A stretch of 62,879 nt of DNA, filler included, from Psammoneis japonica (Eukaryota): the NCBI GenBank assembly GCA_008632985.1. It is 5 parts of 5 records of this genome, joined end to end, with 100 filler letters (N's around TTAATTAATTAA, not from the genome) between each part and the next. Parts side by side here need not be neighbours in the genome. Positions count along the whole stretch, not along the records: positions 50,685 to 62,879 come from QPGO01000513.1; 4 more parts are not named here. The stretch is one strand, 5' to 3'. A program made the translations under genes and the position numbers. The notes beneath the pieces were generated by a model, which was not told the DNA's origin, searched no databases, and saw only the letters and a program-made list of their open reading frames with translations. Shown one piece after another: positions 5,488-62,879 of the stretch. Position 1 is the stretch's first letter. Every line of letters starts with the position of its first letter.

Positions 5488-5506
5488 TTCTTGCTCTGAA
5501 GCTGCC

Positions 5507-12625: not shown

Positions 12626-12665
12626 TTGACACTAACGTCACTGTCTTCTACCAAAGAACTAGCTT

Positions 12666-34289: not shown

Positions 34290-34850
34290 CTGTTTCACAA
34301 CAGTGCATCCTCTCCCCAAAATGCTTTTGACCAGAGCATGCACTGTTGTGATTCATGCACCTTCCGCGTGAATCACCAACTGTTTTTTGGCCATGGCGGT
34401 CAACAAGTTTACCCCGTCCCATGACAAGGTCAATCCTGACCCTTCCTTCCAATCCATTCATGAGTTTGACTTTGATGAAACAGAACATTTTACCAATGGT
34501 TTTGGATTTGAATTGTTTGGACCCAAGCTCAAAAGCACAACTGCAATGCGTGCATCCAAAAAGCAGTTTTCGGAGACAACAAGTTCATCCCCCTCTCCAG
34601 AATTCCTTGCCCTTCCCTTCCTTTGTCACAAGCTGAAGTTGCATCACATTCCACATGTTGCAGATGTTGTCCACACCAATGACATTGTCAGGAAAACTCT
34701 TGGACACCCTGACATTTGGTCCTGCATCAGCACTCACGGTTGGTCCTTAAAGAAATCACGCACGCTGAAAGGTGAATGTGTTCTTTGATGTCAAAATTTG
34801 GAGGAAGCTCTCTGTTTCTCCAAACCACCTGGAGAGACAGGAAAAGAACA
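34290..34850 (+). repeat. Decayed coding segment with an inverted paralogue at ~39730-40690
   Basis: PEFLALPFLCHKLKLHHIPHVADVVHTNDIVRKTL versus PEFLVLLFLCHKLKLRCIPCVAKVICTNNIVGKTL; also EHFTNGF..FGPK..SKKQF in both copies. Confidence 0.85.
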
Positions 34851-37800: not shown

Positions 37801-39104
37801 CCGCATGTTCTCCACATTTGACACAAGAGACTTTGTGAACAATGCCCTCAATTGTGGGTTTACCATGCACAAGTGCAAGGAGTGTTGGGACTGTGTCGCG
37901 AATCACCAGGACAGGTGGGGCATGAGGCACTGTGTGCACAGTCATTGCCACAAAGATGGGTGGAGTCAAATGAGAGATGAGTTCGCAGTGGGATCCGTGG
38001 GCTAAATGGAGTTTGCCATGGATGTGGATGACATTCATGGTTTGAGGGACAAGTCACTCATCAGCTTGCCGACTTGTTGAGTGGATGATGAAGGAACGTG
38101 CGGACCACTTGGACAAAGTTCAAGGTGGGGAGGAATGTTCCAACTGGTGATGGACAAAGATGGGATCACCTTTGATGCCCCAACACTGGCAAAGTGATTC
38201 AATCATGATGTGAGATGTGACATGCCTGACAACCTTTGGTTTTGTGATGGACTTGAGTTCTTTTGTTTGTCACCNNNNNNNNNNNNNNNNNNNNNNNNNN
38301 NNNNNNNNNNNNNNNNNNTTAATTAATTAANNNNNNNNNNNNNNNNNNNNNNNNNNNNNNNNNNNNNNNNNNNNGCAAGCAAGCGCTGAGTGCAATTTTT
38401 GGGGGCACCATGTCTCCATTGTTGTTCTGGAGCAAACAGCAAATGGTGTTGATTTGGCTGATGCAGCCAACGTGCACGTGCACCTTGACAATCTGTCGCG
38501 CTGCATTCTGACATTTTGGAATGAAAAGAAGTGCTTGCATTTGCATCCCTCTGTCACAACAGAAATGTGCAAGCTTTCCCTGGCCCTTTTGGAGCAGTCG
38601 GTGGGTGAGTGAAAGCAGACCTGTTGAAAGATGCAGATGACGCCATTTTGACACCATTTTGATGCATTGTCATCTGGTGGTGTCCTTGTCATTTGTGATG
38701 AAGTGCCATGCTCTCTGGTTTTGCAGAGCGCGCATCAGTGATCTGCCCCCCTTTTCAGTGGCAATTTTTGTTCCTTTGGCAGACAAAACATTTGTGGTTT
38801 CAAACCTCATCAGCTGCGCAGCTGGCAATGAGTGGTTGCCTGTGCAAGACAAATGATTTCTGCCAGGAAGCCCAACTCTCAACTGTCAAATCACTTGTGC
38901 CACCAAACATCCTCCTTTGCATCCTGTCAATGTACGAGCCCTCTTTTGCTGCAGAAACTGACAATCAACAACATTTTGGTTTTTGCATCACAAGCTGAAA
39001 TTTGAGTGACAATGCTTTCTGTGCATTGACTTTTGTTCCGCTTTCCTCAATGAACTCTGAACATTGCTTTTGCTTGCACACACAGTGCATCAATGAACAC
39101 CAAA

Positions 39105-39683
39105 TCAATGCTCTGTTGTCTGGCATTTTTTAAGTTGCAACAGGCTTGCACTGCAGCTCAGCTCACAGCTTTTGTTGTCATTGTCCACTTTGCTGTCTTT
39201 GTTTTCTTCCTCATTGCCTCTGTTGTTTGGTTTGTCCATTTTCTCTTCATTGTCTTCATTGTCGCCAGAAAGCTCTGTTGTTGCTTGTGTTCTTGTCTCC
39301 GTCCCCACCAGCTTTTCAGTGGTTTGGCCCTTTCTTTTTCCTTTTCCTTCACTCTCCTTTTTCTTTGCATTGGCATGCCATGTGTCGAGCTGCACATCTG
39401 GCTCACTTGCCCTGTCATCCTTCACCTCCCCAAGCAGGGCAGTGAGTTGCTTCATTCCACCATCCTTCCAAGAGTCACGCTGATGCAACGGGTCTGTGTG
39501 CAAGGGCGCCGGTTTTGTTTCCTTCTCCTCCTCTTTGCTCCACTCTTCCTTTCCCTCTTGCTTGGATTTTTGCTCCCAAACCTTCCAGCAATTTTCCAAT
39601 GCCAACAGCACCATTGCCTGGTTGCTTGCCATGACCAGCTCTGTGACCTTTGTGTTGCCTGACTCCGCCATCCTTCTCCACAT
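39105..39683 (-). pseudogene. Decayed ORF of a multicopy, probably transposon-associated diatom protein family
   Basis: ASNQAMVLLALENCWKVW...PLHTD...SWKDGGMKQL..L..VKDDR resembles an SDEA..LL..ENY...W / YT / GW..EG...DR pattern I recall from repetitive diatom hypothetical proteins. Family assignment not verified. Confidence 0.45.
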
Positions 39684-40899
39684 GAGACAGGGTCATTGAG
39701 GTCCTTGACGGCAATCACGGCAGTGCTCCTCCTCTTTTTTGGTCTCTCCTGGAAGGGCAGTGAAATGTGGAGCATCCTCCAAATTGTGGTGGCAAAGAAT
39801 GCACTCACCTTTGTTCTGGCGGGACTTCTTCATCAAGCAACCACAAGTCATTGTGCAGGACCATGCGCTGGGACATCTGAGAGTTTTCCCAACAATGTTG
39901 TTTGTGCAGATGACTTTGGCAACACAGGGAATGCAACGAAGCTTCAGCTTGTGGCAAAGAAAAAGAAGCACAAGGAACTCTGGGGTGGGCAACCAAGACA
40001 CGCCCCAGCTCCAGGTGGGGCCTTGTTCCACTGAACTGTGACATCGATGGTTTTTTGGATCACACAGCATGTCGTGCATGCAGAATTGTGCAGCGCTTTT
40101 GTGAAATTTTGTGTCATTTTGTGGTGCACTTGTTGAGCAATCCATCCAACAACTTTTGACATTTTTGTCATGCAGCGCAATTCTGCAATGTCTTGAGAAT
40201 CACATGGGGCAGGCGCACCTGCAAAAACGTTGAGTGGCAAGAGGCTCAATTGTGCCACAAACTTGGCCGTTCATTTGATGTTGAAGATGAGTGTGTCTGT
40301 TGATTAAATTCTTGCACTGCGGAGCTTGTGCACAGAATTCTGCGGGCCCGATGTCACATGGAGTCCCACCCATGCGCCCCAATTTGTTCTCTCCACAAAC
40401 TGCTTTTTGGATGCATGCAGTGCAATCATGCTCCTGAACTTGGGCCCAAATGGCTCCACTCTGAAGCCATTGGTGAGATGTTCTGTGTTGTTGAAATTGA
40501 CATCATCAGGAAAGACAAAGGAGGGGTTGGGGTCGACCTCCTCCACTGATGGGGCAAAGTCATTGACCGGCCACCATGGCCAGTTGTCTGTTGGTGGAAC
40601 ATGCAGAAAGTGCATGAATCACAACAGCCCATGCTCTGGTCAAATTGACTTTGGGGAGACGGTGTGCTTTTGTGAAATGTGCAGGAGTTGGCATGTGCAG
40701 AAAAAAACACAGAGAACACAGCAAACACACCAACACAGAGCTCCGGAAACAAGTGTGGTGCAACAAGGAAATGTGCACACACGCAGAGGTGACTGGGCAG
40801 ACATGGGCAGCAGCATGTGGCGCGACACACAAGGGGGTGAAAACAAAAAAGCACAAACCAGTTTGAGGGCCAAATTGTCAAAGGCATGGAGCGCGGGTT

Positions 40900-43800
40900 G
40901 TCACGACCCAAAGCTTCTTTGACCACATGAAATTTGCAAATGTGAGTTGCTTGAGCATGAACAACCAACACAAATGGACAAAAAAAATCTGCGCGAAAAG
41001 GTCAAACACCTTGCACCATGAAAAGCGTCTTTGACCACATGACATTTGCAAATGTGAGTTGCTTGAGCATGAACAGCCAATGCAAATGGGCAAAAAAAAT
41101 CTGCGCAAAAAGGTCAAACACCTTGCGCCATGAAAAGAACATTCAAGTGTTGGCATCACAGTCAAAAGAGTGACACAAACAAAATGCAGTGGCGCGGCAA
41201 AAACCAATGAAAGTGATTGCCGCCACATTGCAGGCTCTCATGTGCTTGGCTTTTGGGTGGCTTCTGTGCAAAAAGCACCCCGGGCAATCTCTGGACCACC
41301 GCCTCAAAGGTCAAATGGCTTCAAACAAAGCTTTGACAAAGAAACTTGGCAGTTGCTGTTGGTTTTGCAGCGTCAGTGCTCAGGTTCAAATTTTTCCTTT
41401 TTTGGGTTCAAACTTTCAACTTCAACCAACTTGGGTTTTAAGTTTGAATTTTGAACCCAGCTGGGTCCAAAATTGCAGTTTTTGACCCGCCCCGAAAAAG
41501 GAAGGCGTGCACTTCTCACGAGGCAGCAGGCGACCTGTGCACATTTCCTGTCAGTTTCAGCTGCACTTGAGCAGACACACCAGACAATCTTTGGACCACC
41601 GCCTCAAAGGTCACATGGCTCCAAACAAAGCTTTGACAAAGAAACTTGGCAGTTGTTGTTGATTTTGCAGCATCAGTGCTCGGGTTCAATTTTTAACCTT
41701 TTTGGGCTCAAACTTTCAATTTCAACCAACTTGGGTTTTAAGTTTGAATTTTGAACCCAGCTGGGTCCAAAGCAGCAGTTTTCAACCCAACCCAAAGCTT
41801 GAAAAGGTCAAACACCTTACATTGTGAAAACAATGTTCAAGTGCTGGCATCACAGTCAAATGAGTGACACAAACAAAATGCAGTGGCGTGGCAAAAACGA
41901 ATGAAAGTGATTGCCGCCACATTGCAAGCTCTGATGTGCGTGGCTTTTGGGCAGTTTCTGTGCAAAAAGCATGCCAGGCAATCTCTGGGCCGCCGCCACC
42001 TCAAAGGGCAAATGGCTCAAAACAAAGCTTTGACAAAGAAACTTGGCAGTTGCTGTTGGTTTTGCAGCATCAGAGCTCAGGTTCAAATTTTTCCTTTTTT
42101 GGGTTCAAACTTTCAATTTCGACCAACTTGGGTTTTTAAATTTGAGTTTTGAACCCAGCAGGGTCCACAACTGCAGTTTTCAACCCGCCCCAAAAAAGGA
42201 AGGCGCGCACTTCTCATGAGGCAGCAGGTGACCTGCGCACATTTCCTGTCAGCTTCAGCTGCACTTCAGCAGACATGCCGCAGTTCTTGGCCCGTTCATT
42301 TTCTGCTTGGCCTGGCACAACCCAAATCCATGATGATTTGGCACATTTTGCCCTGCAGAAGAGTTTTTGGGAGTGTTCTCTGGCTCGCGACACCAAACAA
42401 CATGCAAAGTGACAAGGACAACAAGGTTTTGCCAATTTCAAAAATGTGGTTTGCTGCATGCATGCAGACAAAAGGTTGTTTTTGTCATGCCCTTTGTGAC
42501 ATTTGAAGGCTGCAACACGTCGCCGTGGTGCATCAACTCTCATTGGCAGCTGTGTGCTGCGCTCCTCCCCATGCATCACGCGTCCATGCGGCTCTTTGCC
42601 AACGTGCGCTGACACTGCACGGTTTTGGCGGAACAGTGTGGGTGCGCACGAAGGAACATGCAGAGCTGCACAGAGTTTCACGCGTTCGACAGTGATCAAC
42701 GTTGCTGCAGACAACTCCCGCTCAGGGTTTCGAACCCCTGGCCTCCTGCCTGATGGCTGCGATGAACCACTCCGCTGTGAATTCACAGTGCAGTGTGCAT
42801 GCAGACAAAAGGTCATTTTTGTCACGCCCTTTGTGACATTTAAAGGCTGTGACACGTTGCCGTGATGCGCTGACTCTTGTCAGCAGCTGTGTGTTGCAGG
42901 TTGTTTCTGAGTTGCTTTGCAGTGTGCTCTTGATGGAGTGCTGCACATCGTGGCACAAGGCGTGATGATCTCAAGAGTGCACAGGCTCGCATGAGTGGCT
43001 GATGGCAAAAAATGGTGTTGGGGGTTTGCATTGACAACATTTCCTCTGTTGTGTTGTGACTGACCTCATGCACTGCCACTCATGCTGTTTGTTTCTCTGA
43101 GGCTTTGTGTGCTCACATCCAATTGACTTGCGCGCACTTTCTCTTTCTGTGCTGCGCTTTTGTTCTGCAGGCTCTGCATTGTTGTGAGGTGCCCCAGAGA
43201 CACTTTTTCTCTGCCAGCTCATCATGGTGGCTCCAACAACGTGGGCCACTTCTTTTGGCTGTGCTGCAGTTGAGCTCAAGAGTGCACAGGCTTGCATGGG
43301 TGGCTGATGGCAAAAAATCATCTTGGGGGTTCGCACTGACAACATTGCCTCTGTTGCGTTGCGACTGACCTCGTGCACTGACCTTCATGCTTTGTGCCTT
43401 GCTGAGGCTTTGTGTGCTCACAGTTGTTTGGCTTGTGTGTGATTTCTCTTTCTGTGCCGCGCCTTTGTTCTGCAGGCTCTGCATTGTTGTGAGGCACCCC
43501 AGAGACACTTTTTCTCAACCAGAGCATTGTGGTGGCTCCAACGGTGCAAACCACTTCTTTTGACTGTGCAGCAGCTTTGTGACCCAACAAATTTGGCAAG
43601 TGAAAGAGGAGCCATCAAAAGATGCAGATGATGCCATTTTGATGCATTTTCGTCTGGCGGCGTCATTGTCGCTCATGACAAAGAGCCGCGCTTTCTTGCT
43701 TTTTGCTGCGTCTGTGTGAGAAAAGTGTGTGCTTGGCTCTTGGGCAGTTTCTGTGCAAAAAAGTGCCGGGCATTCTCTGAACCGCCCTCTCAAAGGCCAA

Positions 43801-46800
43801 ATGGCTCTGAACAAAGCTTTGACAAAGCAGCTCAGCAGCTGTTGTTGGTTTTGCAGCGCCGGTGTTCGGGCTCAATTTTTTCCCTTTTTTGGGCTCAAAC
43901 TTTCAATTTTAACCAACTTGGGTTTTCAGTTTCGATTTTGAGCCCGATTGGGTCCAAAATTGCAGTTTTCGACCCGACCCAAAGCTTTGGTCACAAAACA
44001 CTTGCAAGTGCAAGTTGCTTGAGCATGAATGATCAACGCAAATGAAAAAAAAAATCCTCATGAAAAGGTCAAACACCTTGCGCCATGAAAAGAATGTTCA
44101 AGTGTTGGGGTCACAGTCAAAAGAGCAACAAAAACAAAATGCAGCGGCGCAACAAAACCAATGAAAGTGATTGCCGCCACATTGTGGGCTCTGATGTGCT
44201 TGGCTCTTGGGCAGTTTCTGCAGAAAAAGCACGCCAGGCAATCTCTGGACCGCCGCCTCAAAGGTCAAATGGCTCCAAACAAAGCTTTGACAAAGGAACT
44301 TGGCAGCTGTTGTTGATTTCTCAGCGTCAGTTCTTGGGTTCAAATTTTTCCTTTTTTGGGCTCAAACATTCAATTTCAACCAACTTGGGTTTCAAACTTG
44401 AATTTTGAACCCAGCTGGGTCCAAAATTGCAGCTTTTGACCTGCAGCCTCAGTGGCGGGGTTCAATTTTTTCTTTTTTGGGTTCAAACTTTCAACTTTGA
44501 CCAGCTTGGGTTGCAAATTTGAATTTTGAACCCAGCTGGGTCCAAAATTGCAGTTTTCAACCCGGCCCAAAGCTTTGGTCACAAAACGCTTGCAAGTGCA
44601 AGTTGCTTGAGCATGAATGATCAACGCAGATGAAAAAAAAAATCCTCATGAAAAGGTCAAACACCTTGCACCATGAAAAGAATGTTCAAGTGTTGGGGCC
44701 ACAGTCAAAAGAGCAACAAAAACAAAATGCAGCGGCGCAACAAAAGCCAATGAAAGTGATTGCCGCCACATTGTGGGCTCTGATGTGCTTGGCTCTTGGG
44801 CAGTTTCTGCAGAAAAAGCGCGCCAGGCAATCTCTGGACCGCCGCCTCTGAGGTCAAATGGCTCCAAAAAAAGCTTTGACAAAGGAACTTGGCAGCTGTT
44901 GTTGATTTCTCAGCATCAGTGCTTGGGTTCAAATTTTTCCTTTTTTGGGTTCAAACTTTCAATTTTGACCAGCTTGGGTTGCAAACTTGAATTTTGAACC
45001 CAGCTGGGTCCGAAATTGCAGTTCTTGACCCGACCCAAAGCTTTCTTCACAAAACATTTGCAAGCGCAGTTGCTTGAGCATGAACGATCAACGCAAATGA
45101 AAAAATCCTCGTGAAAAGGTCAAACACCTTGCGCCATGAAAAGAACGTTCAAGTGCTGGCATCACAGTCAAAAGAGCAACAAAAACAAAATCATGCAGCG
45201 GTGCAACAAAAACCTGTGAAAGTGATTGCCGCCACATTGTGGGCTCTGATGTGCTTGGCTCTTGGGCAGTTTCTGCAGAAAAAGCATGCCAGGCAATCTC
45301 TGGACCGCCACCTCAAAGGTCAAATGGCTCCAAACAAAGCTTTGACAAAGGAACTTGGCAGCTGTTGTTGACTTCTCAGCATCAGCTCTTGGGTTCAAAT
45401 TTTTCCTTTTTTGGGCTCAAACATTCAATTTCAACCAACTTGGGTTTCAAACTTGAGTTTTGAACCCAGCTGGGTCCAAAGTTGCAGCTTTTGACCTGCA
45501 GCCTCAGTGGCGGGGTTCAATTTTTTCTTTTTTGGGTTCAAACTTTCAATTTTGACCAGCTTTGGTTGCTGACTTGAATTTTGAGCCCAGCTGGGTCCAC
45601 AGCTGCAGCTTTTGACCCGAGACGCGCCCCAGGTCTAGGTGGCACCTCGCAATGCTGAACTGTGACATCTGCAGTTTTTTGAATCGCGTCGCATGTCGCG
45701 CACGTACATTTCTACGTGATTTTGGCGAAATTTTGCATGATTTTATGGTGCATTGATCAGGCCATCCATTGAACAACTTTTNNNNNNNNNNNNNNNNNNN
45801 NNNNNNNNNNNNNNNNNNNNNNNNNNNNNNNNNNNNNNNNNNNNNNNNNNNNNNNNNNNNNNNNNNNNNNNNNNNNNNNNNNNNNNNNNNNNNNNNNNNN
45901 NNNNNNNNNNNNNNNNNNNNNNNNNNNNNNNNNNNNNNNNNNNNNNNNNNNNNNNNNNNNNNNNNNNNNNNNNNNNNNNNNNNNNNNNNNNNNNNNNNNN
46001 NNNNNNNNNNNNNNNNNNNNNNNNNNNNNNNNNNNNNNNNNNNNNNNNNNNNNNNNNNNNNNNNNNNNNNNNNNNNNNNNNNNNNNNNNNNNNNNNNNNN
46101 NNNNNNNNNNNNNNNNNNNNNNNNNNNNNNNNNNNNNNNNNNNNNNNNNNNNNNNNNNNNNNNNNNNNNNNNNNNNNNNNNNNNNNNNNNNNNNNNNNNN
46201 NNNNNNNNNNNNNNNNNNNNNNNNNNNNNNNNNNNNNNNNNNNNNNNNNNNNNNNNNNNNNNNNNNNNNNNNNNNNNNNNNNNNNNNNNNNNNNNNNNNN
46301 NNNNNNNNNNNNNNNNNNNNNNNNNNNNNNNNNNNCTTTTTTGGGTTCAAACTTTCAATTTTGACCAGCTTGGGTTGCAAACTTGAATTTTGAACCCAGC
46401 TGGGTCCAAAATTGCAGTTCTCGACCCGACCCAAAGCTTTCTTCACAAAACATTTGCAAGCGCAAGTTGCTTGAGCATGAGCGATCAACGCAAATGAAAA
46501 AATCCTCGTGAAAAGGTCAAACACCTTGCGCCATGAAAAGAACGTTCAAGTGTTGGCATCACAGTCAAAAGAGCAACAAAAACAAAATCATGCAGCGGCG
46601 CAACAAAAACCTGTGAAAGTGGTTGCCGCCACATTGTGGGCTCTGATGTGCTTGGCTCTTGGGCAGTTTCTGCAGAAAAAGCATGCCAGGCAATCTCTGG
46701 ACCGCCACCTCAAAGGTCAAATGGCTCCAAACAAAGCTTTGACAAAGGAACTTGGCAGCCATTGTTGATTTCTCAGCGTCAGCTCTTGGGTTCAAATTTT

Positions 46801-49800
46801 TCCTTTTTTGGGCTCAAACACTCAACTTCAACCAACTTGGGTTTCAAACTTGAATTTTGAACCCAGCTGGGTCCAAAATTGCAGCTTTTGACCTGCAGCC
46901 TCAGTGGCGGGGTTCAATTTTTTCTTTTTTGGGTTCAAACTTTCAACTTTGACCAGCTTGGGTTGCAAACTTGAGCTTTGAACCCAGCTGGGTCCAAAAT
47001 TGCAGCTCTCGACCCAGCCCAAAGCTTTCTTCACAAAACATTTGCAAGCACAAGTTGCTTGAGCATGAGCGATCAATGCAAATGAAAAAAATCCTCATGA
47101 AAAGGTCAAACACCTTGCGCCATGAAAAGAATGTTCAAGTGCTGGCATCGCAGTCAAAAGAGCAACAAAAACAAAATCATGCAGCGGCGCAACAAAAACC
47201 TGTGAAAGTGATTGCCGCCACATTGTGGGCTCTGATGTGCTTGGCTCTTGGGCAGTTTCTGCAGAAAAAGCATGCCAGGCAATCTCTGGACCGCCACCTC
47301 AAAGGTCAAATGGCTCCAAACAAAGCTTTGACAAAGGAACTTGGCAGCTGTTGTTGATTTCTCAGCATCAGTTCTTGGGTTCAAATTTTTCCTTTTTTGG
47401 GCTCAAACTTTCAATTTCAACCGACTTGGGTTTCAAGTTTGAATTTTGAACCCAGTTGTGTCCAAAATTGCAGTTTTTGACCCGCCCCAAAAAAGGAAGG
47501 TGTGCACTTCTCACGAGGCAGCAGGCGACCTGTGCACATTTCCTGTCAGTTTCAGCTGCACTTGAGCAGACACTCCAGACAATCTTTGGACCGCTGCCTC
47601 AAAGGTCACATGGCTCCAAACAAAGCTTTGACAAAGAAACTTGGCAGTTGTTGTTGATTTTGTGGCATCAGTGCTCGGGTTCAATTTTTTCCCTTTTTGG
47701 GCTCAAACTTTCAACTTCAACCAACTTGGGTTTCAAGTTTGAATTTTGAACCCAGCTGGGTCCAAAACAGCAGTTTTCAACCCAACCCAAAGCTTGAAAA
47801 GGTCAAACACCTTGCGTTGTGAAAACAATGTTCAAGTGCTGGCATCACAGTCAAATGAGTGACACAAACAAAATGCAGCGGCGTGGCAAAAACGAATGAA
47901 AGTGATTGCCGCCACATTGCAAGCTCTGATGTGCGTGGCTTTTGGGCAGCTTCTGTGCAAAAAGCATGCCAGGCAATCTCTGGGCCACCGCCACCTCAAA
48001 GGTCAAATGGCTCCAAACAAAGCTTTGACAAAGGAACTTGGCAGCTGTGTTGATTTCTCAGCATCAGTCTTGGTTCAAATTTTTCCTTTTTTGGGTTCAA
48101 ACTTTCAAGTTCAACCAACTTGGGTTTTAAATTTGAATTTTGAACCAAGCAGGGTCCACAACTGCAGTTTTCAACCCACCCCAAAAAAGGAAGGCACGCA
48201 CTTCTCATGAGGCAGCAGGTGACCTGCGCACATTTCCTGTCAGTTTCAGCTGCACTTGAGCAGACATGCGCAGTCTTGCCGTCATTCTGCGTGCCTGGCA
48301 CACCAAGTCCATGCTGATTGGCACATTGCCCTGCAGAAGAGTTTTGGGATGTCTGGCTCGTGACACCAAACAACATGCAAAGTGACAAGGACAACAAGGT
48401 TTTGCCAATTTCAAAAATGTGGTTGTTTCTGAGTTGCTTTGCAATTTGCTCTTGATGGAGTGCTGCACATCGTGGCACAAGGCGTGATGATCTCAAGAGT
48501 GCGCAGGCTCGCATGAGTGGCTGATGGCAAAAAATGGCATTGACGGCTTGCGTTGACGACATTTCCTCTGTTGTGTTGTGACTGACCTCATGCACTGCCA
48601 CTCATGCTGTGTGTTTCTCTGAGGCTTTGTGTGCTCACATCCAATTGACTTGCACGCACTTTCTCTTTCTGCGCTGCGCTTTTGTTTTGCAGGCTCTGCA
48701 TTGTTGCGAGGTGCCCCAGAGACACTTTTTCTCTGCCAGCTCATCATGGTGGCTCCAACAATGTGCTCAAGAGTGCACAGGCTTGCATGGGTGGCTGATG
48801 GCAAAAAATCATCTTGGGGGTTCGCACTGACAACATTGCCTCTGTTGCGTTGCGACTGACCTCGTGCACTGACCTTCATGCTTTGTGCCTTGCTGAGGCT
48901 TTGTGTGCTCACAGTTGTTTGGCTTGCGTGTGCTTTCTCTTTCTGTGCTGCGCCTTTGTTCTGCAGGCTCTGCATTGTTGCAAGGCACCCCAGAGACACT
49001 TTTTCTTGACCAGAGCATCGTGGTGGCTCCAATGGTGCAAGCCACTTCTTTTGACTGTGCAGCAGCTTTGTGACCCAGAAAATTTGGCAAGTGAAAGAGG
49101 AGCCATCAAAAGATGCAGATGACGCCATTTTGATGCATTTTCGTCTGGCAGCGTCATTGTCGCTCATGACAAAGAGCCGCGCTTTCTTGCTTTGTGCTGC
49201 GTCTGTGTGAGAAAGTGTGTGCTTGGCTCTTGGGCAGCTTCTGTGCAAAAAGTGCCGGGCATTCTCTGAGCCGCCCTCTCAAAGGCCAAATGGCTCTGAA
49301 CAAAGCTTTGACAAAGCAGCTCAGCAGCTGTTGCTGGTTTGCAGCGCCGGTGTCGGTTCAATTTTTTCCTTTTTTGGGCTCAAACTTTCAATTTTGACCA
49401 ACTTGGGTTTTCAACTTCGATTTTGAACCCAGCTGGGTCCAAAATTGCTGTTTTTGACCCGACCCAAAGCTTTGGTCACACAACACATTTGCAAGTGCAA
49501 GTTGCTTGAGCATGAGTGGTCAACGCAAATGAAAAAAAATCCTCATGCTGAGCATGACGATGGCAATGAAAAGAAATCCTCCGAAAGACACCTTGCCCAT
49601 GAAAAGAATGTTCAAGTGTTGGGGTCACAGCCAAAAGAGCAGCAAAAACAAAATGCAGTGGCACAACAAAAGCCAATGAAAGTGATTGCCGCCACATTGT
49701 GGGCTCTGACGTGCTTGGCTCTTGGGCAGTTTCTGCAGAAAAAGCGCGCCAGGCAATCTCTGGACCACCACCTCAAAGGTCAAATGGCTCCAAACAAAGC

Positions 49801-50584
49801 TTTGACAAAGGAGCTTGGCAGCTGTTGTTGATTTCTCAGCGTCAGTTCTTGGGTTCAAATTTTTCCTTTTTTGGGCTCAAACATTCAATTTGAACCAACT
49901 TGGGTTTCAAACTTGAATTTTGAACCCAGCTGGGTCCAAAATTGCAGCTTTTGACCTGCAGCCTCAGTGGCGGGGTTCAACAATTTTCTTTTTGGGTTCA
50001 AACTTTCAATTTTGACCAGCTTGGGTTGCAAATTTGAACTTTGAACCCAGCTGGGTCCAAAATTGCAGTTTTCGACCCAACCCAAAGCTTTGGTCACAAA
50101 ACGCTTGCAAGTGCAAGTTGCTTGAGCATGAATGATCAACGCAAGTGAAAAAAAAATCCTCGTGAAAAGGTCAAACACCTTGCGCCATGAAAAGAATGTT
50201 CAAGTGTTGGGGCCACAGTCAAAAGAGCAACAAAAACAAAATGCAGTGGCGCAACAAAAGCCAATGAAAGTGATTGCCGCCACATTGTGGGCTCTGATGT
50301 GCTTGGCTCTTGGGCAGTTTCTGCAGAAAAAGCGCACCAGGCAATCTCTGGACCGCCGCCTCCAAGGTCAAATGGCTCCAAAAAAAGCTTTGACAAAGGA
50401 GCTTGGCAGCTGTTGTTGATTTCTCAGCATCAGTGCCTGGGTTCAAATTGCTCCTTTTTTGGGCTCAAACTTTCAACTTTGACCAGCTTGGGTTGCAAAC
50501 TTGAATTTTGAACCCAGCTGGGTCCAAAATTGCAGCTCTCGACCCGACCCAAAGCTTTCTTCACAAAACATTTGCAAGCACAAG
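40900..50584 (+). repeat. Complex satellite array (~300-590 bp units) with a ~6-kb higher-order duplication
   Basis: aaaaggtcaaacacctt recurs at ~40997, 41108, 41802, 44063, 44651, 45114, 46511, 47100, 47797 and 50165. 41.45-44.9 kb is repeated at 47.45-50.58 kb. Confidence 0.93.
42715..42785 (-). other. tRNA-like remnant (Pol III A and B boxes), possible SINE head
   Basis: Minus strand CAGCGGAGTGG (A-box with TA->CA) and CAGGGGTTCGAAACCCTG (B-box/T-arm stem-loop). No clean cloverleaf. Confidence 0.3.
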
Positions 50585-50684
50585 NNNNNNNNNNNNNNNN
50601 NNNNNNNNNNNNNNNNNNNNNNNNNNNNTTAATTAATTAANNNNNNNNNNNNNNNNNNNNNNNNNNNNNNNNNNNNNNNNNNNN

Positions 50685-52360
50685 TTCTCAACTGTCGGCC
50701 ACTCGCAATCTAGCCCAATCACCCGCTCACCTTCTGGTCTCTGCTTTGTGAGGTCTCGCAGAGCATCAACAGCCGTGTCCATTTCGGCGTTGCTGTGTGG
50801 GACACGAATGTCTTCAGGGTTAATTTTGCAGACAGGGAATTCATCGTCAGCAGCGGAGGTGGTTGCAGTGCAGCTCTTGTTGTGCAACTCTTCAAATTCT
50901 TGCAAGGATGGAATCATGTCAAGAAGGAAAGCTTTGTCGGCACCAGGTTTGTCGGTGAATGCAAGCTCCACCGGATCCTGCCCGTGCGCTTCAACTGTCT
51001 TCAGAAAGGCGGACATTGCATTCCGCATCTGGTCATGGCCATCGGACACCACGTGGTGTTGCATTCTCATCTCACCAAACTCATTTGCACAGGTGACAAG
51101 CCCCTTGAATGTGGGGTTGCTGTGGCATTGACAAAGGTGCTTCGCCTCTTTGAATGAAGCATCAATGTGCAGGCGACGAGCTCCCCTCTTCTTCACCTCT
51201 TTGTCCAAATGCGGGCGAGTGGACTTGTGATGCTCCTTGTGGACATGAGCGTGGTGCTTCCCAGTCGGGACAAGTCCGTCGTGTCCCGATTTGTCAGAGA
51301 ACGGTGAGCACATGCTTCGCCGAACTGTTGGATTCAACATCCTCTCACGCTTGCACTTGTTCTCCCGTTTGATGTGTTCGCGGCAGTGCTTTTTGGAGTG
51401 CAACTCAAGAAGCAGGCTGGAAAGGGCTTCCGGGCACATTCCTTTGTCGTGCACTGGACGCATGAGGTCTGGCACTGTTTCCTCATTCACTCCGGCCCTG
51501 TGAGCAAGGAAAGCAGGAAACTCATCGCCGCATCCATGAGGAAGCAGTTCAGTGGATGCGGGGTTGCAGCCCACAAAAGTGTGTTGTGTCACGTCATCGT
51601 CACCTTGCCTTCATTGTTCCTTGCAGCCATGACAAATGCATTGGGCTGTCATGGCACAGTGGCACGTGTTCAGTGCAATGACTCGTCTTGCACAGTGATT
51701 CGTTTGACATCCGTGAACACCAACTCGATGGTTCGATCCGCATGAGACACAAAATGGAGTGGCTTCTGGACCCCACCTGATGTGAGGCAGCCAAACAATG
51801 ATCTCTCAGTAGCATGAGGGCTCTTCACAATCGACACCAAGCTTCTGACAGGTCTTCCGTGCATCTGTGACGGGAATTCTCCAATCACTTTCTTTTGGCT
51901 GCTCCAAGAGCCACCTTCTGTTCAGAGCCCCACCGAGATTCCCAGTGGTTTCTTGCCTGAGTTGATCACGAACTGCCCTCAGGCATTTGAGCATGGTCCC
52001 GCCAGGTCCACTGATGTCTTCATCCATGAGATCATCACACTCAGCAAAATCATCCAGCTCTGCCACCACAGGAGGCAAGTCCTCAATCCTCAAAGAGGGC
52101 TCGTCTCTGTCTGGGTCTTGCTGTCCTTCTTCTTCATCCACATCTTGAACTTCTGGTGGATTGTGTTCCTCTGCCCTGGGAGGAGTTACTTGAGTTCTCA
52201 CAGCGCCGCCATTCAGAGCCGCAGCCATGGCCTCCCTGCCCTTCTGGGCCTTTTTTGCAGCCATTTGCCTCCTCCTCTCTGCTTTCTCCTCTGGAGTCAA
52301 AGCTCGCCTCTTCTTCCTTTGTTTCTTATCCTTTGATCCTTTCTTTCTGCCTGGTGCCAT
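50685..52360 (-). mobile_element. Decayed putative transposon gene (DUF6729-like region) running into a DEDD 3'-5' exonuclease motif I
   Basis: EFPAFLAHRAG..LMRP..LLELHSK, HIDASFKEAKHL..FKGLVT..NEFGEMR, then RVIGLDCEWP at the gap. NLS-like N-terminus MAPGRKKGSKDKKQRKKRR. Domain naming is from recall only. Confidence 0.55.
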
Positions 52361-52709
52361 GGTTGTTGTTGACGACAATACGATTCGAACGTCGGTGCGG
52401 TATGGAGTGTGGAGTTGTTTTTTGCGAGTTGTCTTGCGGGGTTTGTTTCTGCAATTTTTTGGGCGCGGTTCCACCACACAAGTATTTATTGCTGAAGCGA
52501 GCGTGAAAGATTGGCTCCGCGTCTTCTGATTGGCTGAATCCCAAGATCTTTTACTCTTCGCGCGGTTTCGACGTGTTTTTGGCAGTACAAAACCCACGTA
52601 CTGGGGTTCGAGCTCTCGAGTAAAAGATCCAGTAGCATGAACTATGAGCCGCTCTAGCTAGGGCTACTCTAGAGAGAGAGAGTAGAGTCCATAGTCTTAC
52701 CGCGCGCGA

Positions 52710-56165: not shown

Positions 56166-56738
56166 TGACAGGCAGCTTGCTTGTGTTAGCTTGTACATCA
56201 CCCTGATAAATTCTATTACATAAATCCTTGCCGCATCGTCCTTTGTCGTTGCTGCTGCAACACCTTCGATGCAATGAATGAATAACAAACACTGAACGGC
56301 CGATACAAAAGGATGAAGTGCAAAAGATGTTTCTAATTGTTGTTGTTCCATTCTTAAATGTCTTAAGAATGGCGCAGGGCAGGTACATGAAATGGTGTTT
56401 TGCCAATGGCTTTGGCATGGAGTTGTTTTGATAGAGGTAGAGAAAGAACTGGGTACTCGCCTGAGAGTGTCTTGGGTGATCAAGTCCGTGCACTAACAGG
56501 AGAGAGCAAGCTAGAGCCTAATCTAGAAACAGTACCTTGCGATAATGCTTTGTCTAGAAGTTGTGAGAGATTCTGAGCTAGTCTCAGAGTCGACATGGCT
56601 GTCAGAACGGATAGATTCCGACAGGTTGTTGAAACACTCCGAAAGATCAGCAAATTTCAGTCATAAACCCGACTGAACATATGTGCTATCTTCGAACATG
56701 CGGTTCCAATATAAAAGGGTCATGTGGGATCCCTGTCA
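56166..56738 (-). repeat. Probable 3' LTR of the copia element (573 bp)
   Basis: PPT AAGGGGGG (minus strand, 56746-56739) abuts TG; 7-bp inverted termini TGACAGG (56166) and CCTGTCA (56732-56738). The 5' LTR is outside the window, so the far end is inferred. Confidence 0.65.
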
Positions 56739-59700
56739 CCCCCCTTGAACCGAATGAGGGAAGATGAGAAGGAGCTCATGACAACATGTGTGCAGGTAGG
56801 CGCCATAGGGCACGGTCGACCATAACCCAAATTTTGTCTGCACATTGAGTTTTGGTGAGGCAGTCCGCTAATTGACTTTCCGCGGGGACCCAAACAAGTA
56901 AGTGATGACCGAGTCGCTGCCCTTCGCGGACACATTGGAAGCGTCGCTCAACATGTCGGGTTCGTCGAGTTTGTTGGTCGTTTTGGGCCATTTGGACTGC
57001 GGCTTGGTTGTCCAACATGAGGATCATGGGAGCAGTGGACAGGCACTGGGAGTCAATGGAGCAGTGGCGAGTGCCAAGGAAGGTGAAGTCGCAGGCCAAC
57101 ATGCGCAGGTGAGCAACAGCCATGGCGCCAGTGCAGGCACCCATCCACTCGGATTCGGCAGCGGACATTGCGACAGGGGTTGGGACAGTGGAATTGGCTT
57201 CCACTGTTGCCCCATTGAAGTAGACCATAAATCCAACGGTCGACTTGGCGGTGTCCGGACAATCCTGCCAGCTGGCATCGGCGAAGACCACAAATTCAGA
57301 ATGACTGACATTGTGAGCTTCGCAAATCGCGTGAACAGGGCTCGCGGTAGGATCAGAATAAAATTTGATGGCGAGGTCTTGATGTTTGCAGAGACAGCCA
57401 AAAAGGTGGACGAGAGCATCAAAATCCTTCACACCAGGGTTGGTGCAAGCCTTTGCAAGTTTGCAGGTGATCCAGAGAATGTCAGTGCGAGTGTTGCAGG
57501 CAAGATGAAGGATGGAGCAGACAGCGGATCGAAAATGGAGACCAGGATGCTTGTTCGCGATTTGCTTGGATTCGGCGGCGTCCTTGGGTTGATTCGCCTT
57601 GGAGCACACATGGTCAACGGGGGCTGGGGTGCCCTGAAAGCTGGGGCTGCCCCAAGGCGAGGTGGGAGCAAGGAACCGCTTGAGGAGATTGCGCACATGT
57701 CGATGTTGGTCGAGAGAGAAGGAGCCGTCGGAACATCGGTGAGTGTGCATCTGCAAGAACCAGGTGACGTCACCGTTGAATGTGATGTTGCACCTGGATC
57801 GCACGAGGTTCTCAAAATCCTTCTCGACTCTGTCGTGAGACCCAAAGCAGATGATGTCATCCGTGTAGAAAATGAGCTTGAGACATGAGCCGTCGGGGAA
57901 GTGCTTGGCAAAGAAGGTGGGATCTGCTTTGGAATTGGTGCATCCTTGGGCAAGTGAAAATTCGGAGAGCTCGGTGGACCACCAAAGACTGCTGCGGATG
58001 GTCCCGCACATGCCTTTCTTGAGATGAAGGGGTGCACCAAAGCATTCAGCATGTTCAGGAAAATGTTGCTTCAGAATCGGGTCGAAGCAAACAAAGAGGC
58101 GGCCGCGAGCAGGGGCTTGAAGGCAAGCACCGACAAAATCACCATTCTTGACGTGTTGTTTGGCCTTTGCTGCAAAAGCTGGGAAGAGCTTGATGGCACG
58201 AGAGGATGCGTTTGGTGACCAATTGTCGTCATCGGCTGATTTGCGTTGCATGTCGCCGCGCGCACAGTGTCGAGCCTTGAGTTTCTCCAGAGAGCCGTCA
58301 GATTTCTCTTTGGCACGTAGAGCAAGTGTGGCGCCGATGATCTCATCGTCTGGACGGGGGACATTCATGAAGAGCGAAGGCTTCATTGTCCACGATGAGG
58401 TTCTTGAGCTCAGATCGGACGGCACGAAGCCAGGCGTCACGAATCGCAGGAGGTTGTCTGAGGATGGCTCGAAAAGAGCAGGGAATGGGCAAGCAGTCAT
58501 CAACAGGAATCGAAGAGGTGGCCTGGACGGCTTCCAAGGCCTGTTGCAAAGGATCTGGGCATTTGTGCCAATTGCAGTCAGGCCAAGGGGATTTCGACGG
58601 AGGCGCTGCATGCAGATTCCATGGCGAGCGAGTCGTCGAAGAGAGTTTGTTCGAGAAGATCGACTGGGGGGAGTGGAGGAGGTCACAGCGTAGAGTTGCT
58701 CCTCGTCCGCGAAGCGTGCGGAAGTGCGGAGGCCAGCGTTGGTGCGAGTGGATCATCTGAGACCAGTTGCAGCGGGTGCAGGGGATGGTGGCTCTGAATC
58801 GGATTCATCAGATTCCGGAGGCGCTTCAGTGAGAGTAGAGGGAGAAGGGGGTGAGTCAGCATCAAGGAAATCTTGAATGGCACCCGCATGTTCATCCACA
58901 GGATTCTCGTTGCATGTCTTTGGGCCGGAGGCGTTGTTGGAGATGTTCCGGATCGGGAGTGCGCCAGAAAAGGGGACGTGGTCGTGCACGAGTGATGATT
59001 CGAAAAGTTCGTCGAAGACAGCGTCATGCGTGACAATCAGATTCTTGGTGCCGATGCCCTCAGGAACATGGATGAGGCAACCAGCCTGGTTTGGTGCAAA
59101 ACCGACATGAATGCCACGAGATCGACGTTGAATCTGTTGTTGAGTGGTGGTCGGGCAACGAGTTTCCGGGTTGAGAGGTTGGCATCTGTCGAAAGTGACG
59201 GGACATCCGAAGACCCGAAAATTGCCAATCTTTGGAAGTCTGTTTGAATGCATGGCAGTGCGGTGCAGCCAGTGAGCTGTCAGGGAGCCGTGTGCCTTTA
59301 GCTGGGAGGACGTTCAGGATGGCGATGGCATGAACGAATGCATGATGGCAGAAGTGTGCCGAGAGTCTTGCGTTGACAAGAAGGCAACGAATCATCTTGC
59401 TTGCGACTTGCCACATGCGTTCCGCAACCCCGCTCTGCTCCTGGTGACATGGAGCGGCGACTTCGACCTTGATTCCATTGTCTTCACCAAAGGCAAGAAA
59501 TTCGGAGGACAGAAAACATGTTGCAGAGTCCGCGCGGACGAAGTTTGTGTCTTGGATTTGTCCCTGGGATTGTACTTTGGTCATCCATGATTTAAAAGCG
59601 GCGATGATGTTGCCAGATGATGGGCTCTCAAGGCCACGAACACCGCAGCAGTGTCCTTTGTGGGTTGCCAAAAAGAGGTGGGTGGGGAAAAGACGTTTTT

Positions 59701-62700
59701 GGGGTGAGTGCGACTGTGTGAGGGTTGGGAATTATGTCCACAAACACACGTGAAAATGTGTGTGTTGGTTCAGTTGGGTCACACTTAACGCGGTTGCGCT
59801 TTCGGGAGATGGCGATGCGCGCGTTGTCGAGATGGTCGTCAGTCCCGGGGGCAATGTGGCAGTCGCGCCAAACTTCGCCAACTGTGCCCGCCAAAAGGCT
59901 CTGAGAGGAGCGACAACCGAAACGGTGACCTGCAAGGTCAAGGTCGATTGCATGTGTCGTTGGTTTCGATGAGCCTTGGGCGTTGGTTGCTTCCGTCAAC
60001 GGGGGGTCAGAAGTGGGTTCTGCAGCAGCGGTGGCATCGTGACAGGAGCGCTTGTGATGGAGAATCAGGAAGCTGAATGTGTGTCCGTCGCCAAAATCAA
60101 GTGTCGTGATGTTGGTGGTGATTCGGACATTGAAGAGTTCATTGGCCATGAAGGAGGGCACCGAAAACAAGTTCCGGTTGAGGCCGGGGATGCGACAGAC
60201 GCGATCGAGAACAAGGTTGACCGGATGTCCTTGGTCGTCTTGAAAATGGAGGGTGACGGATCCAACTTTCGTGGCATGAATGGTGGTGCCGTCTGCAACA
60301 ACAACAGGGACGTGACAGGGGGTGCTGTCATCAAGTGAGTCATGACGAACGAAATGAGAAGAGGCACCAGAGTCGACAAACCAACTGCTGATGTCCGTGA
60401 GGTCGGAGTCGCGGGGCAGTTGGTGAGGTCGGCACTGGTTGGGATCGTCGGCCATGCATGCAACTTGAACGTGACAATCAGCGGTGTCGCATGAGAAACG
60501 GGGGATGGTGTCAACCGCATCGATAGAGTCACAGCTGAGATCAGATGTGATGGAGTCGTCATCATCGTCAGAGATTGCAGTGTGCCTGGATGCGCAAGAT
60601 GCCGTGGTGAAAGCGTCGTGGAAATCGAAGCAGACTGGTGACACCGCGGGAGAGTTCCCGGGGGGCGGTTCATCAAAAGGGTGGGCCGCAGCATCATCCG
60701 GTTCGCATGGGCGATGGATCAAAGACGGCACAGTGGATGATGAACCCGCGCTGGAGTCGCAATCATGATGGGCTAGAGGAGGTGGACCAGAGGAGGTCGA
60801 GCAGGCCGATGAAGGTTCATTGCCATCAGGTGTGCATGAGCGACAGAGCAAAAGCGGCATGGCAGATGAGGAATCTGTGCTGGAGCTGCAGTCGTGGTGT
60901 GCAAGAGGCGGAGGACCAGCAGAGTTCAAGTTGGTGGAGAAAGTTTTGTTGCCATCAATCGAAGAGGTGTCATCGAGGAGGTCCTGGAGAGTGATGGCAG
61001 GCATTGTTCCATGAGTGGAGGAAGATGCGATCGAGTCACTCGTGGAGTGGCAGGCCGATGAGTCGTCATCAAAGGAGACGTGGCGTGGTTCCAGGGTTGG
61101 GATAGAGTCTGAACAGGAGGGACAACAAGGGTGAGCATCCTCCATGTCAGCTCGAGCAGCACAGAAAATGATTTGGTCCTTCGGTGGAGGTGCCTTTGCG
61201 CGGCAGTGCATGGTGGGTGCAGTGGCTGTGAGAGCGGTTTGTTTTGAGTCCTTTGCGAGTTCGGGACAGTCGGGACGAAGGTGCCCCTTTTTTCTGCAGT
61301 GATGGCACATGACTTTGCTCAGGTCGTGAGGAGGTTTGGCAGCAGGTTGATCCTTGGGTGTGCCCTTCTTCAGATCGCGGAGCCGAGAGCGACATTCGGA
61401 GGCGTTGTGGTTGCGTTTTCCACAGCAGTCGCAGATCTCGGTGGCGTTAGGTTGGTTTGGGCGACGTTGCTGCTGTTGCTGTCGTTGTGCATTCCGAGGA
61501 GCGCGTTTGACGGCAGCAAGGTGAGCATGGTTGTTGTGAGAGCGGGAGCGGGAGCCATGCGAGAGCCGATCACGATGCTGTTGGTTGTGATGCTGCTCGT
61601 CGATGTCATAGAACGTTTGCTGGATGTCCTTGAACCGGGGAGCGGTGGCAGAGGAGAGACGAGCAGCAGTTCGAAATTCGGATTCGAATTGCTTGATGGC
61701 AGCATCGCAGCGGGGATGGCTGCCCATTTGGCTGAGAAAATGGGTGCTGATTTCCGCATCAGTCTTGACTGGAAGGCCGGCGTTCTTGCAGCTCCGGAGT
61801 TTTCGCTCAAACCGTTGGATGAAGCTGCTGGCGGACTCGTCCGAGTTGCGAAAGACTTGCAGGTGGTCGTTTGAACAGCAGTTGCTGTGTTCCTGAGTGA
61901 TGGGCACACAGCGCAGCTGGAGTTCTTCGAGAGCAAGTTTGCCGGAACGAGATCCAAGGTCAGAAATGTCAGATTGGTGTGTTGCATCCACATGCGTCCA
62001 GAGGAGAGCACAGAGGGCGTTGTCGGCATGGTCTGGAAGTGGGCGGAGAGGGACAGAGGGAAAATCATTGAGCAGACCATTGAATTCTGGAAAAGATGCA
62101 AAGGTCCCACGCAAGTCATTCAAGAATGCACAAAACTTTTGTCGTCGCGTGTGCGGATTCTGATGGTGCTTCAGAGTGCGCAAATTTGTGTGAGATGCAT
62201 GCTTCATCAGAGAATTCGACAAGGATTCCGAGGTGCGCTCGTTTGCAACATGAGAGAAAACAGTGTCGTTGACTGATGAGTGATGAGCGGACGGGGAAGC
62301 GGGGTGTGGTCGTGGGGTGAGGGCAAGGCGGAACATGAGTTCCAAGTGAAGGGACTCGGCGTCGCGCATCATGTCCTGAAAACGACGAAGTGCAAGAGTG
62401 CTTGCTTCGCAAGCAGGGTGTCGACAAAGGAGGCGCTCGAAAGACATTTTCGCCGAATCGACAGTGTCACAAAGCTCAACGGCACGTTCATTCTCACGAT
62501 GGAAAAACGGTGCGAGAGCTTGTTGGGTGTCGAAGAGAGCCTCGAAGGTGACGAGACGAACCTGGACGTTGATGTCATTGTCGACGGACAGATCAGGCGC
62601 GTCAGAGGTGTCGGACGAAGCTGGAGCAGGTGAGTCAACTGCAGGAGTGTGAGCAGGAGAGGCAAGAGCCTTGTCAAGTGCTCCATCCATTTCGTTCAAC

Positions 62701-62879
62701 ATGGGAGCAACAACATCAAAAAGTTGAGTCGCAGAGGTTGAAGATGATGGGTCGACATGGGAGAGAGCAGGAGTGGCTTGATCCGTTGGAGATGAAAGCG
62801 GGGGGAATTCCTCAGGGACCCCAGTGGTGCATGACATTGGGTGGCGGGTCGTCAGCAATGGGTTGAGACCCCCCTTGAG
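56166..62879 (-). mobile_element. Ty1/copia LTR retrotransposon (gag-PR-IN-RT-RH), near complete, TpA-hypermutated
   Basis: Two CCHC knuckles (CDCCGKRNHNASEC, CHHCRKKGHLRPDC); protease WFVDSGASSH; integrase VFVD..RADS..QEQSGVAER; RT LKARHCARG, YTDD; RNase H FADASW, AESE, DNQAA, TRHVERR, QLADCLTK. Integrase lies upstream of RT. Confidence 0.96.

Follow-up and report, generated by a model that had tools for sequence, protein, structure and literature searches.

A probable region-targeted TpA hypermutation of chromosomal repeats, including a Ty1/copia retrotransposon, in the diatom Psammoneis japonica

The signature of hypermutation at TpA has so far come from a single 2026 preprint on an alga unrelated to diatoms, the chlorarachniophyte (rhizarian) Bigelowiella natans. 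In the available parts of that preprint, 231 of the 302 nuclear mutations in mutation-accumulation lines fell in two integrated viral regions; with few exceptions these were A>G or T>C changes, each of which lay on TpA, at a de novo rate in chromosomal DNA about 1000-fold over background (Mettrop et al., bioRxiv 10.64898/2026.01.13.699255). From the figures given there (211 mutations, 6169 TpA, 3132 generations) we calculate about 1e-5 mutations per TpA per generation in B. natans. The same parts report that TpA-depleted genes are enriched in reverse-transcriptase and transposase domains, propose an ADAT2-like deaminase and state that ADAR enzymes favour a 5' U; they mention neither diatoms nor retrotransposons (10.64898/2026.01.13.699255). 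We analysed a stretch of 62,879 bases, filler included (hereafter the window), from the diatom Psammoneis japonica (assembly GCA_008632985.1), in which the internal region of a Ty1/copia long terminal repeat (LTR) retrotransposon has lost nearly all TA dinucleotides and, as a consequence, nearly all tyrosines. This case extends the signature to a diatom. Our literature search turned up no description of such a loss of TpA from the repeats of diatoms, and the passages available from one diatom mutation-accumulation study describe a GC>AT bias, with no hotspots or transposable elements (PMC6604790).

The diatom locus is like that of B. natans, as far as the available text of the preprint goes, in that the mutations are confined to TpA and yield TpG and CpA on both strands, and in that the tracts of foreign DNA are sharply bounded with the remaining genome normal (here four blocks, beside genes with TA observed/expected ratios (o/e) of 0.47-0.61). 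The two cases differ in the host, a rhizarian there and a stramenopile here, and in the targets, which are giant-virus and virophage inserts in B. natans and an LTR retrotransposon with unclassifiable repeats in the diatom. They also differ in extent, the nucleocytoplasmic large DNA virus region having a Rho of 0.45 and the diatom blocks being near saturation (o/e 0.04-0.08), and in the kind of evidence, since the events themselves were observed in B. natans and the diatom case is known from its end state alone. The preference for R-TA-Y over Y-TA-R flanks, the sparing of the LTR and the independence from CpG decay belong to the diatom case and are not described for B. natans in the parts of the preprint available.

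Three better-known processes are comparable. Repeat-induced point mutation (RIP) of ascomycetes is likewise a dinucleotide-specific transition hypermutation of chromosomal repeats that inactivates transposons in bounded tracts on both strands. RIP, however, changes C to T mostly at CpA, and so creates TpA, raises AT and makes stops, whereas the diatom process destroys TpA, raises the GC content and makes no in-frame stops; with TpA nearly absent and CpA/TpG in excess, we ruled out fungal RIP as the process. APOBEC3, on the cDNA of retroviruses and LTR elements, and ADAR, on repeat RNA, are deaminases that hypermutate retroelements with a nearest-neighbour preference. Each of them acts on one strand (G>A or A>G) of the RNA or cDNA intermediate, whereas the diatom outcome is symmetric (12:13 in tyrosine codons of the element and 1946:1946 in the largest block, both described below) and reaches repeats that are not retroelements. 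The CpG decay of transposons methylated at cytosine (5-methylcytosine, 5mC) shares its products TpG/CpA, and the very repeat blocks of the window, with the diatom process, but its target is CpG rather than TpA, and CpG is untouched in the element.

Loss of TA and of tyrosine in the copia element

The 5,980 bases from 56900 to 62879 contain 18 TA dinucleotides (o/e 0.06), compared with a mean of 305 (standard deviation 13, minimum 260) in 1000 shuffles, and have a TG o/e of 1.32, a CA o/e of 1.52 and a CG o/e of 0.90. In the matched regions of 67 related metagenome copia loci, scanned on an alignment of 10 sequences, TA o/e ranged from 0.38 to 0.97, and none came near 0.06. These loci have a negative sense-strand GC skew as the element does; we therefore take its strong skew as a family trait rather than a part of the anomaly, and rejected its reading as an asymmetry of the mutagen. 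A tetranucleotide product analysis of asymmetric flanks, made with the 18 long ones of the 67 loci as background, gave no information on which strand is hit, because base composition differs from that background.

At the protein level, our recount returned exactly the tyrosine numbers of the initial annotation, namely one in the 1076 amino acids (aa) of the open reading frame (ORF) at 59628-62858 and three in the 636 aa of the ORF at 56776-58686, both on the minus strand. The integrase-region ORFs have none in 166 aa and none in 203 aa. In the two long ORFs Cys makes up 4.1-4.6% and His 4.2-6.1% of the residues, compared with 1.4-2.0% Cys, 3.2-4.4% His and 3.0-4.7% Tyr in the 16 closest long relatives. 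Among the 150 best cluster representatives no Tyr-poor homologue was found (minimum Tyr 1.67%).

To locate the lost residues, we translated the five in-frame pieces of the element and aligned them with 16 relatives, excluding P0017-P0019 (24-25% identity), and defined as conserved-Tyr columns the 50 columns with Tyr in at least 60% of at least eight relatives. There the element has His 13 times, Cys 12, Phe 8, Leu 4, Arg 3, other residues 9 and Tyr once. When each relative was left out in turn and treated in the same manner, Y>C occurred at 1/767 and Y>H at 13/767 positions with Tyr kept in 83%, which makes the Cys and His of the element a strong excess (Fisher p 4e-24). Intact relatives bearing Cys or His where the element does, which the initial annotation had named as evidence that would speak against it, are thus rare. 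Most of the relatives are close to one another, and P0002 and P0004, which have diverged from the consensus about as far as the element, are therefore the fairer controls; they keep 21/55 and 25/41 of the conserved Tyr, with Cys or His there in only 4 and 1 cases. Tyr is present in all 16 relatives at nine columns, of which the element has lost eight (58125, 58008, 57849, 57612, 57507, 57396, 57093 and 59332) and retains the ninth (57360). A comparison with the nearest fragment, P0145 (60% identity over 279 aa), gives the same picture: opposite the 17 Tyr of P0145 the element has His (4), Cys (6) and Phe (3-4), and for the remainder Leu, Trp, Thr and Tyr, one each.

The change has a direction. 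Among changed His columns H>Y was seen in 0/27 cases in the element and in 28/138 in the relatives; together with the surplus of Y>C and Y>H and the many Tyr kept by P0002 and P0004, this places TA in the ancestral state, in agreement with the initial annotation. That annotation had also expected V>A, I>M and I>T to be raised. Among changed columns, V>A (6/24 in the element, 13/133 in the relatives), L>P (4/59 and 3/268) and T>A (9/47 and 29/323) were modestly raised (p 0.02-0.05), and I>M, I>T and I>V were not. Of the seven motifs offered earlier as former tyrosine sites, five are fully backed by the consensus of the 16 relatives (AYLQ > ACLQ, GIYG > GMCG, LLYLAYN > ILHLACN, QHRYV > QHRHV and IGYL > FGCL). 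The motif G-C-LI-H-VP, whose quoted codons ggt tgc ctc atc cat do occur on the minus strand inside 59066-59086, has its His at a Tyr column and its Cys at a Trp column, and AP-C-HQEQ is not backed, the consensus having Glu there.

Both strands were hit, as had been proposed. Conversion of a Tyr codon to Cys is an A>G change of the sense strand and conversion to His an A>G change of the antisense strand, and the 12:13 ratio of the two (binomial p = 1) gives no sign of strongly one-stranded change. Along the element the two outcomes are interleaved without clustering, forming 14 runs where 13.5 would be expected, and at two places (58053/58044 and 57507/57498) a distance of 9 bases separates opposite outcomes. 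The base preceding the Tyr codon was T in 5, G in 3, C in 3 and A in 2 of the His cases, and C in 8, A in 2, T in 1 and G in 1 of the Cys cases, which is suggestive of a link between the preceding base and the outcome in numbers too few for a rule. At four Tyr columns of the relatives (62330, 61568, 60194 and 57996) the element has Arg, encoded by CGC or CGG. Such a Tyr>Arg change is TA>CG, a transition at both positions, and hence needs a second hit in a non-TA context; TA>CG changes would make new CpG.

TA-free blocks, their borders and their flanks

The initial annotation treated the depletion as a trait of the copia polyprotein, and this has to be abandoned: the window has three further TA-free blocks (Table 1), and the four together take up 40,042 of its 62,879 bases (64%). 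In the three other blocks (34 kb) we saw no retroelement signature or domains in the ORFs tested. A Pfam search of 36 ORFs of at least 180 aa outside the element and of 88 ORFs of 100-179 aa in these three blocks gave no credible family there, and the few weak sub-threshold matches in TA-free blocks were taken as chance. In the 19-kb block (32928-52378) the products are exactly balanced, with 1946 TG and 1946 CA. Two local departures from such balance are compositional. The surplus of CA over TG at 8500-9500 (87-88 against 28-32 per 500 bases) was rejected as a one-strand signature, as it is due to a C/A-rich low-complexity repeat, and a TG-rich internal repeat at 27090-28007 (147 TG against 40 CA per kb) is likewise a matter of composition, not of strand-biased mutation.

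Two duplications give information on order and borders. Within the 19-kb block, the segments 41036-45068 and 47032-50582 are 91-93% identical, with 28 and 19 differences of the CG<>TG/CA kind, 1 and 3 at TA, and 4 and 7 TG<>CA double differences. As the segments are TA-free alike and differ mainly at CpG, the duplication came after the TA loss. The tandem pair 19765-20734 and 20733-21684 (about 970 bases) lies across the border of one of the TA-free blocks; the copy nearer the block has TG or CA at six sites where its twin has TA, with the reverse at one site, and this observation suggests that the process spreads or grades at borders.

In the element itself the depletion ends at about 56900, within pol and 162 bases upstream of the LTR, and the pol tail, the polypurine tract and the 3' LTR are normal. 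The loss claimed earlier for 56776..62858 accordingly holds for most of that interval and spares the last 121 bases of pol. The sparing could be due to a recombination event that brought in unmutated sequence from another copy, or to a chromatin boundary beside the neighbouring gene.

The TAs that survive in the four blocks (n=112) are not a random sample. Y-TA-R accounts for 65 of them, 37 of these being TTAA, and R-TA-Y for 5, and none of the 112 stands in ATAT or ATAC/GTAT. In the non-depleted sequence (856 TA) Y-TA-R accounts for 148 and R-TA-Y for 281 (chi-square p 1e-26). Provisionally, the process prefers R-TA-Y flanks.

TA loss is also separable from the loss of CpG. In 56900-62879 the CG o/e is 0.90, compared with 0.19-0.40 in the other three blocks. 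Since the element has lost TA with CpG intact and the other blocks have lost both, TA disappears faster than CpG and independently of CpG decay. Diatom transposons are CpG-methylated, according to the passages seen of one study (PMC9998398), and this methylation explains why the older blocks are poor in CpG. We rejected 5mC-driven CpG decay as the origin of the missing tyrosines, given the CG o/e of the element and Tyr codons that contain no CpG.

Public reads carry the same pattern. One public DNA run, possibly the assembly's own source, contains 60% of the sampled words of 53000-62879, and a 3262-base contig from it matches the adjacent gene with 0 differences. On the 9.9-kb stretch we placed 784 contigs, nearly all on the element, of which 181 are at least 99% alike; the summed contig depth on the element is 274-831 compared with 31 for single-copy sequence, which indicates a multi-copy family. 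The contigs define 536 variable places, 410 of them transitions. We inspected the 40 best-supported places, at each of which every covering contig differs from the window. Fifteen of them are changes between CpG and TpG/CpA, no more than 3-5 would give back a TA, and at 3 the window has a TA that the other copies have lost; with so few TA-restoring differences the reads agree that TA is absent. Among the public runs listed as containing sequence of the element's stretch, none is an RNA run.

Competing explanations of the TA loss

The element and the blocks are probably explained by a region-targeted, DNA-level TpA>TpG/CpA hypermutation of chromosomal repeats, the element being, as part of this reading, a dead copy of a diatom CoDi-like Ty1/copia LTR retrotransposon. 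Its internal region would have been driven near saturation by conversion of TpA to TpG or CpA. TA is palindromic, and an A:T>G:C transition at either A leads to hits on both strands. The process would act on chromosomal DNA, in sharply bounded tracts of repeated or foreign DNA with neighbouring genes spared, faster than and separately from the ordinary CpG>TpG/CpA decay of methylated transposons. Tyr (TAY) would become Cys (TGY) or His (CAY) and the TAA and TAG stops would vanish, leaving frames open and proteins ruined. We infer an enzymatic process, the simplest candidate being a deaminase that turns adenine into hypoxanthine at 5'-TA-3' in silenced chromatin, with a targeting signal that may be chromatin, small RNA or homology. 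Conceivably it is a genome defence like fungal RIP, and it may be the same kind of process as that seen de novo in B. natans.

The initial annotation placed the mutagen on genomic DNA rather than on the RNA or cDNA intermediate, arguing from two-strand hits. Such hits do not imply this by themselves, and the conclusion is backed by other evidence. The TA-free state extends over the 34 kb of other blocks, with their tandem repeats of about 590 bases and no retroelement signature; TG and CA are equal in number in the largest block; the depleted tract does not coincide with a transcript or cDNA unit; and de novo TpA>TpG/CpA change of chromosomal DNA has been seen in the mutation-accumulation lines of another alga, as reported in the available parts of the preprint (10.64898/2026.01.13.699255).

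Several observations weigh against this explanation. By crude arithmetic over the relatives' averages, the composition excess is about 46 extra Cys and about 28 extra His, and a sense-strand bias is possible on this basis, although the column-based count shows none. The TA-free state predates the segmental duplication, so at least some of the mutated DNA was copied afterwards. Searches of the protein collections found no same-family copies (best identities 47%, 67% over 107 aa, 61% over 279 aa and 52%). The 40 inspected places are biased to variants private to the window copy, and the other copies of the family may have lost their TAs independently or may have inherited a TA-free state. No simple targeting rule fits the sparing of the LTR and of the 121-base pol tail, both of which belong to the same element. 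The flank rule, for its part, is provisional because its background consists of genes and spacers rather than of the true ancestors of the blocks.

Closest to the hypermutation of chromosomal repeats set out above is the same region-targeted DNA process with thymine as the attacked base. Thymine at TpA would be oxidised or hypermodified by an enzyme of the TET/JBP type, to 5-hydroxymethyluracil or a base-J-like product, and mispaired or misrepaired to C, giving CpA on one strand and TpG on the other. The 5-hydroxymethyluracil of dinoflagellate DNA favours TpA. Products and strand symmetry are identical under adenine and thymine chemistry, and nothing in the window separates the two. We know of no thymine-modifying enzyme that gives near-complete T>C conversion, and we rate this chemistry as unlikely. 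The B. natans preprint, in the parts available, proposes an ADAT2-like adenine deaminase, likewise without proof (10.64898/2026.01.13.699255).

Editing during retrotransposition would need an ADAR-like enzyme on RNA (sense A>G) and a deaminase on minus-strand cDNA (sense T>C), followed by integration. The element is indeed a retrotransposon, ADAR prefers a 5' U according to the available text of the same preprint, and one replication cycle could in principle gather both types of change. Against it, the TA-free state is found in sequence without retroelement features, tandem repeats included, and the border effect was seen in a tandem duplication that is not a retroelement; the Cys and His outcomes stand at 12:13 and are interleaved down to a distance of 9 bases, with no runs that follow one strand. 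During reverse transcription the sequence next to the polypurine tract, on its upstream side, stays single-stranded longest, and in the element this is the spared part. Strand-specific editing of RNA or cDNA was rejected on the symmetric outcomes, the spared pol tail and LTR, and the blocks without retroelement features, and we consider retrotransposition-linked editing in general very unlikely.

A living family could instead have evolved TA avoidance, for example in escaping a host TA/UA nuclease or RNase, with Cys and His tolerated in place of Tyr. The catalytic Asp/Glu motifs are present, and the identity of the element to the consensus (45%) is similar to that of the intact P0002 (47%) and P0004 (51%). 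The window copy has four frame changes. All covering contigs of the public run are without one base at 58356, 58666 and 59684, as are part of the contigs (136 of 326 depth) at 59243; the four shifts are therefore private insertions of the window copy or assembly (long-read consensus) errors. The contigs being without the extra bases, a consensus of the family would read through as a single frame at least about 2,030 codons long.

Open frames are to be expected from the genetic code in any case. After a TA>TG/CA change TAY reads TGY or CAY, NTA reads NTG or NCA, and a codon junction NNT-ANN reads NNC-ANN or NNT-GNN, so that no in-frame stop arises; of the stops themselves, TAG is converted to sense, and TAA either to CAA or to TGA, again a stop. 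Long open frames are therefore uninformative on function, and a one-frame consensus is no evidence for a living family. The element has 1-8 TAA and TAG per frame and 15-56 TGA, the sole common stop, and because TAA and TAG are nearly gone it has many ORFs of 100-330 aa in the wrong frames. The loss of 49 of the 50 conserved-Tyr columns, eight of them invariant in the 16 relatives, argues against a living family, as do the near absence of Cys from such columns in intact relatives and the TA-free state of sequence without recognisable coding content; we regard evolved TA avoidance as highly improbable. A sequencing or assembly artefact, such as systematic miscalls at modified bases in repeats, would fit the four single-base insertions as long-read consensus errors and the only partial word coverage by the best run, yet it is scarcely credible, as the run contigs (not fully independent if they stem from the assembly's own source) agree on the absence of TA, the loss is coherent in protein, with precisely Cys or His in place of Tyr, and the genes nearby are normal.

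Features of the window and meaning of the signature

Table 1. Features of the analysed window (positions along the whole stretch; o/e, observed/expected).
Feature	Position	Strand	Remarks
Ty1/copia internal region, TA-depleted	56900..62879	minus	gag, protease, integrase, reverse transcriptase (RT), RNase H; runs off window end
gag-protease frame	59631..62879	minus	open at window end; 1 Tyr; Pol_BBD at residues 826-905
Integrase region, two frames	58789..59689	minus	frame changes near 59688 and 59250; tblastn to P0004, P0008, P0016
RT-RNase H region	56779..58555	minus	3 Tyr; frame changes near 58360 and between 58789 and 58558
pol end, 121 bases, not TA-depleted	56779..56899	minus	4 TA, o/e 0.56
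Polypurine tract (aagggggg)	56739..56746	minus	directly upstream of LTR
3' LTR, TG...CA, 338 bases, not TA-depleted	56401..56738	minus	17 TA, o/e 0.67
TA-free, CG-poor block	2809..13587		TA o/e 0.08, CG 0.34, TG 1.89, CA 1.77; unrecognisable repeats
TA-free, CG-poor block	16396..20228		TA o/e 0.06, CG 0.19; edge overlaps one copy of tandem duplication
TA-free, CG-poor block	32928..52378		TA o/e 0.04, CG 0.40; segmental duplication and ~590-base tandem repeats
MCM4 homologue, host gene	369-2631	minus	three ORF pieces (introns or frame changes); TA o/e 0.61
788-aa single-exon ORF, host gene	53303-55669	plus	no Pfam family; TA o/e 0.47

The assignment of the element is based on domains, gene order and LTR structure. 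Pfam gave RVT_2 (PF07727) at 49.5 bits (cut-off 31.6) and Pol_BBD at 44.3 bits, above its cut-off, with SH3_retrovirus at 25.3 bits just under the cut-off of 27 and no match to rve on the element. By eye, the gag-protease frame also contains two motifs resembling Cys-His knuckles and a DSG motif that is presumably that of the protease, none of them with a Pfam hit. The order protease-integrase-RT-RNase H follows from tblastn segments colinear with P0004 and P0008, two relatives in which PF22936, PF00665/PF25597 and PF07727 follow one another. The RT region is 42-47% identical to the 16 long relatives with PF07727, one of which is from Fragilaria crotonensis, and the frame end of pol strongly resembles the fragment P0190. 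The RT ORF has no exact match in the protein collection, and blastn and tblastn found no paralogues of the element within the window.

Of the LTR structure, the 3' LTR and the polypurine tract lie in the window, and the 5' LTR and primer binding site lie beyond its end. A single-copy contig coming from the host gene stops at 56425, about one word length inside the LTR repeat. One run contig links 62229, in the gag region, to 56476 in the LTR, and the homology to P0008 begins at 62228, next to this junction; other copies may have their 5' LTR at about 62229, in which case 62230-62879 of the window is a variant 5' part. Just outside the LTR, at 56350-56388, is a palindromic motif of about 39 bases that many run contigs share with unrelated flanks, and the depth bin 56300-56629 reaches 2928 compared with 31 for single-copy sequence. 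The motif may be a very high-copy miniature repeat.

Both host genes are normal in TA and CG. The best-aligned homologues of the MCM4 fragment share 70-79% identity with it, those named to species being diatoms (71-75%); some higher-scoring multi-domain MCM4 matches from other organisms are only 56-60% identical. The 788-aa ORF has no exact match in the protein collection. Pairs of 44-N runs with 12 bases between them occur at 12666-12765, 25472-25571, 38275-38374 and 50585-50684, at an odd spacing of about 12.3-12.8 kb, and a single run of 554 N lies at 45782-46335. The N runs are probably masks or scaffold gaps.

For annotation, the window carries a warning: a ruined transposon retains long frames and will pass for an intact one, and each of the six frames acquires long ORFs that are spurious. 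Two clocks, a fast TA loss and a slow CpG loss, offer a means of dating repeats, and TA o/e is a simple marker of targeted chromatin in diatom genomes. The signature is extended from one rhizarian alga to the diatoms, a major and genetically tractable group of phytoplankton, and would amount to a RIP-like defence with the opposite chemistry (AT>GC at TpA). That diatoms have a chromatin-targeted A:T->G:C editor at the TpA of transposons and satellites, which prefers R-TA-Y and works far faster than methyl-CpG decay, is a broader proposal that we judge to be evenly poised. If it is true, the diatom and chlorarachniophyte cases together point to an old genome defence of the SAR supergroup or to repeated invention, with a natural DNA-acting adenine (or thymine) editor remaining to be identified. 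An enzyme that naturally edits A>G (or T>C) in DNA, as this one would, is of clear interest to base-editing technology.

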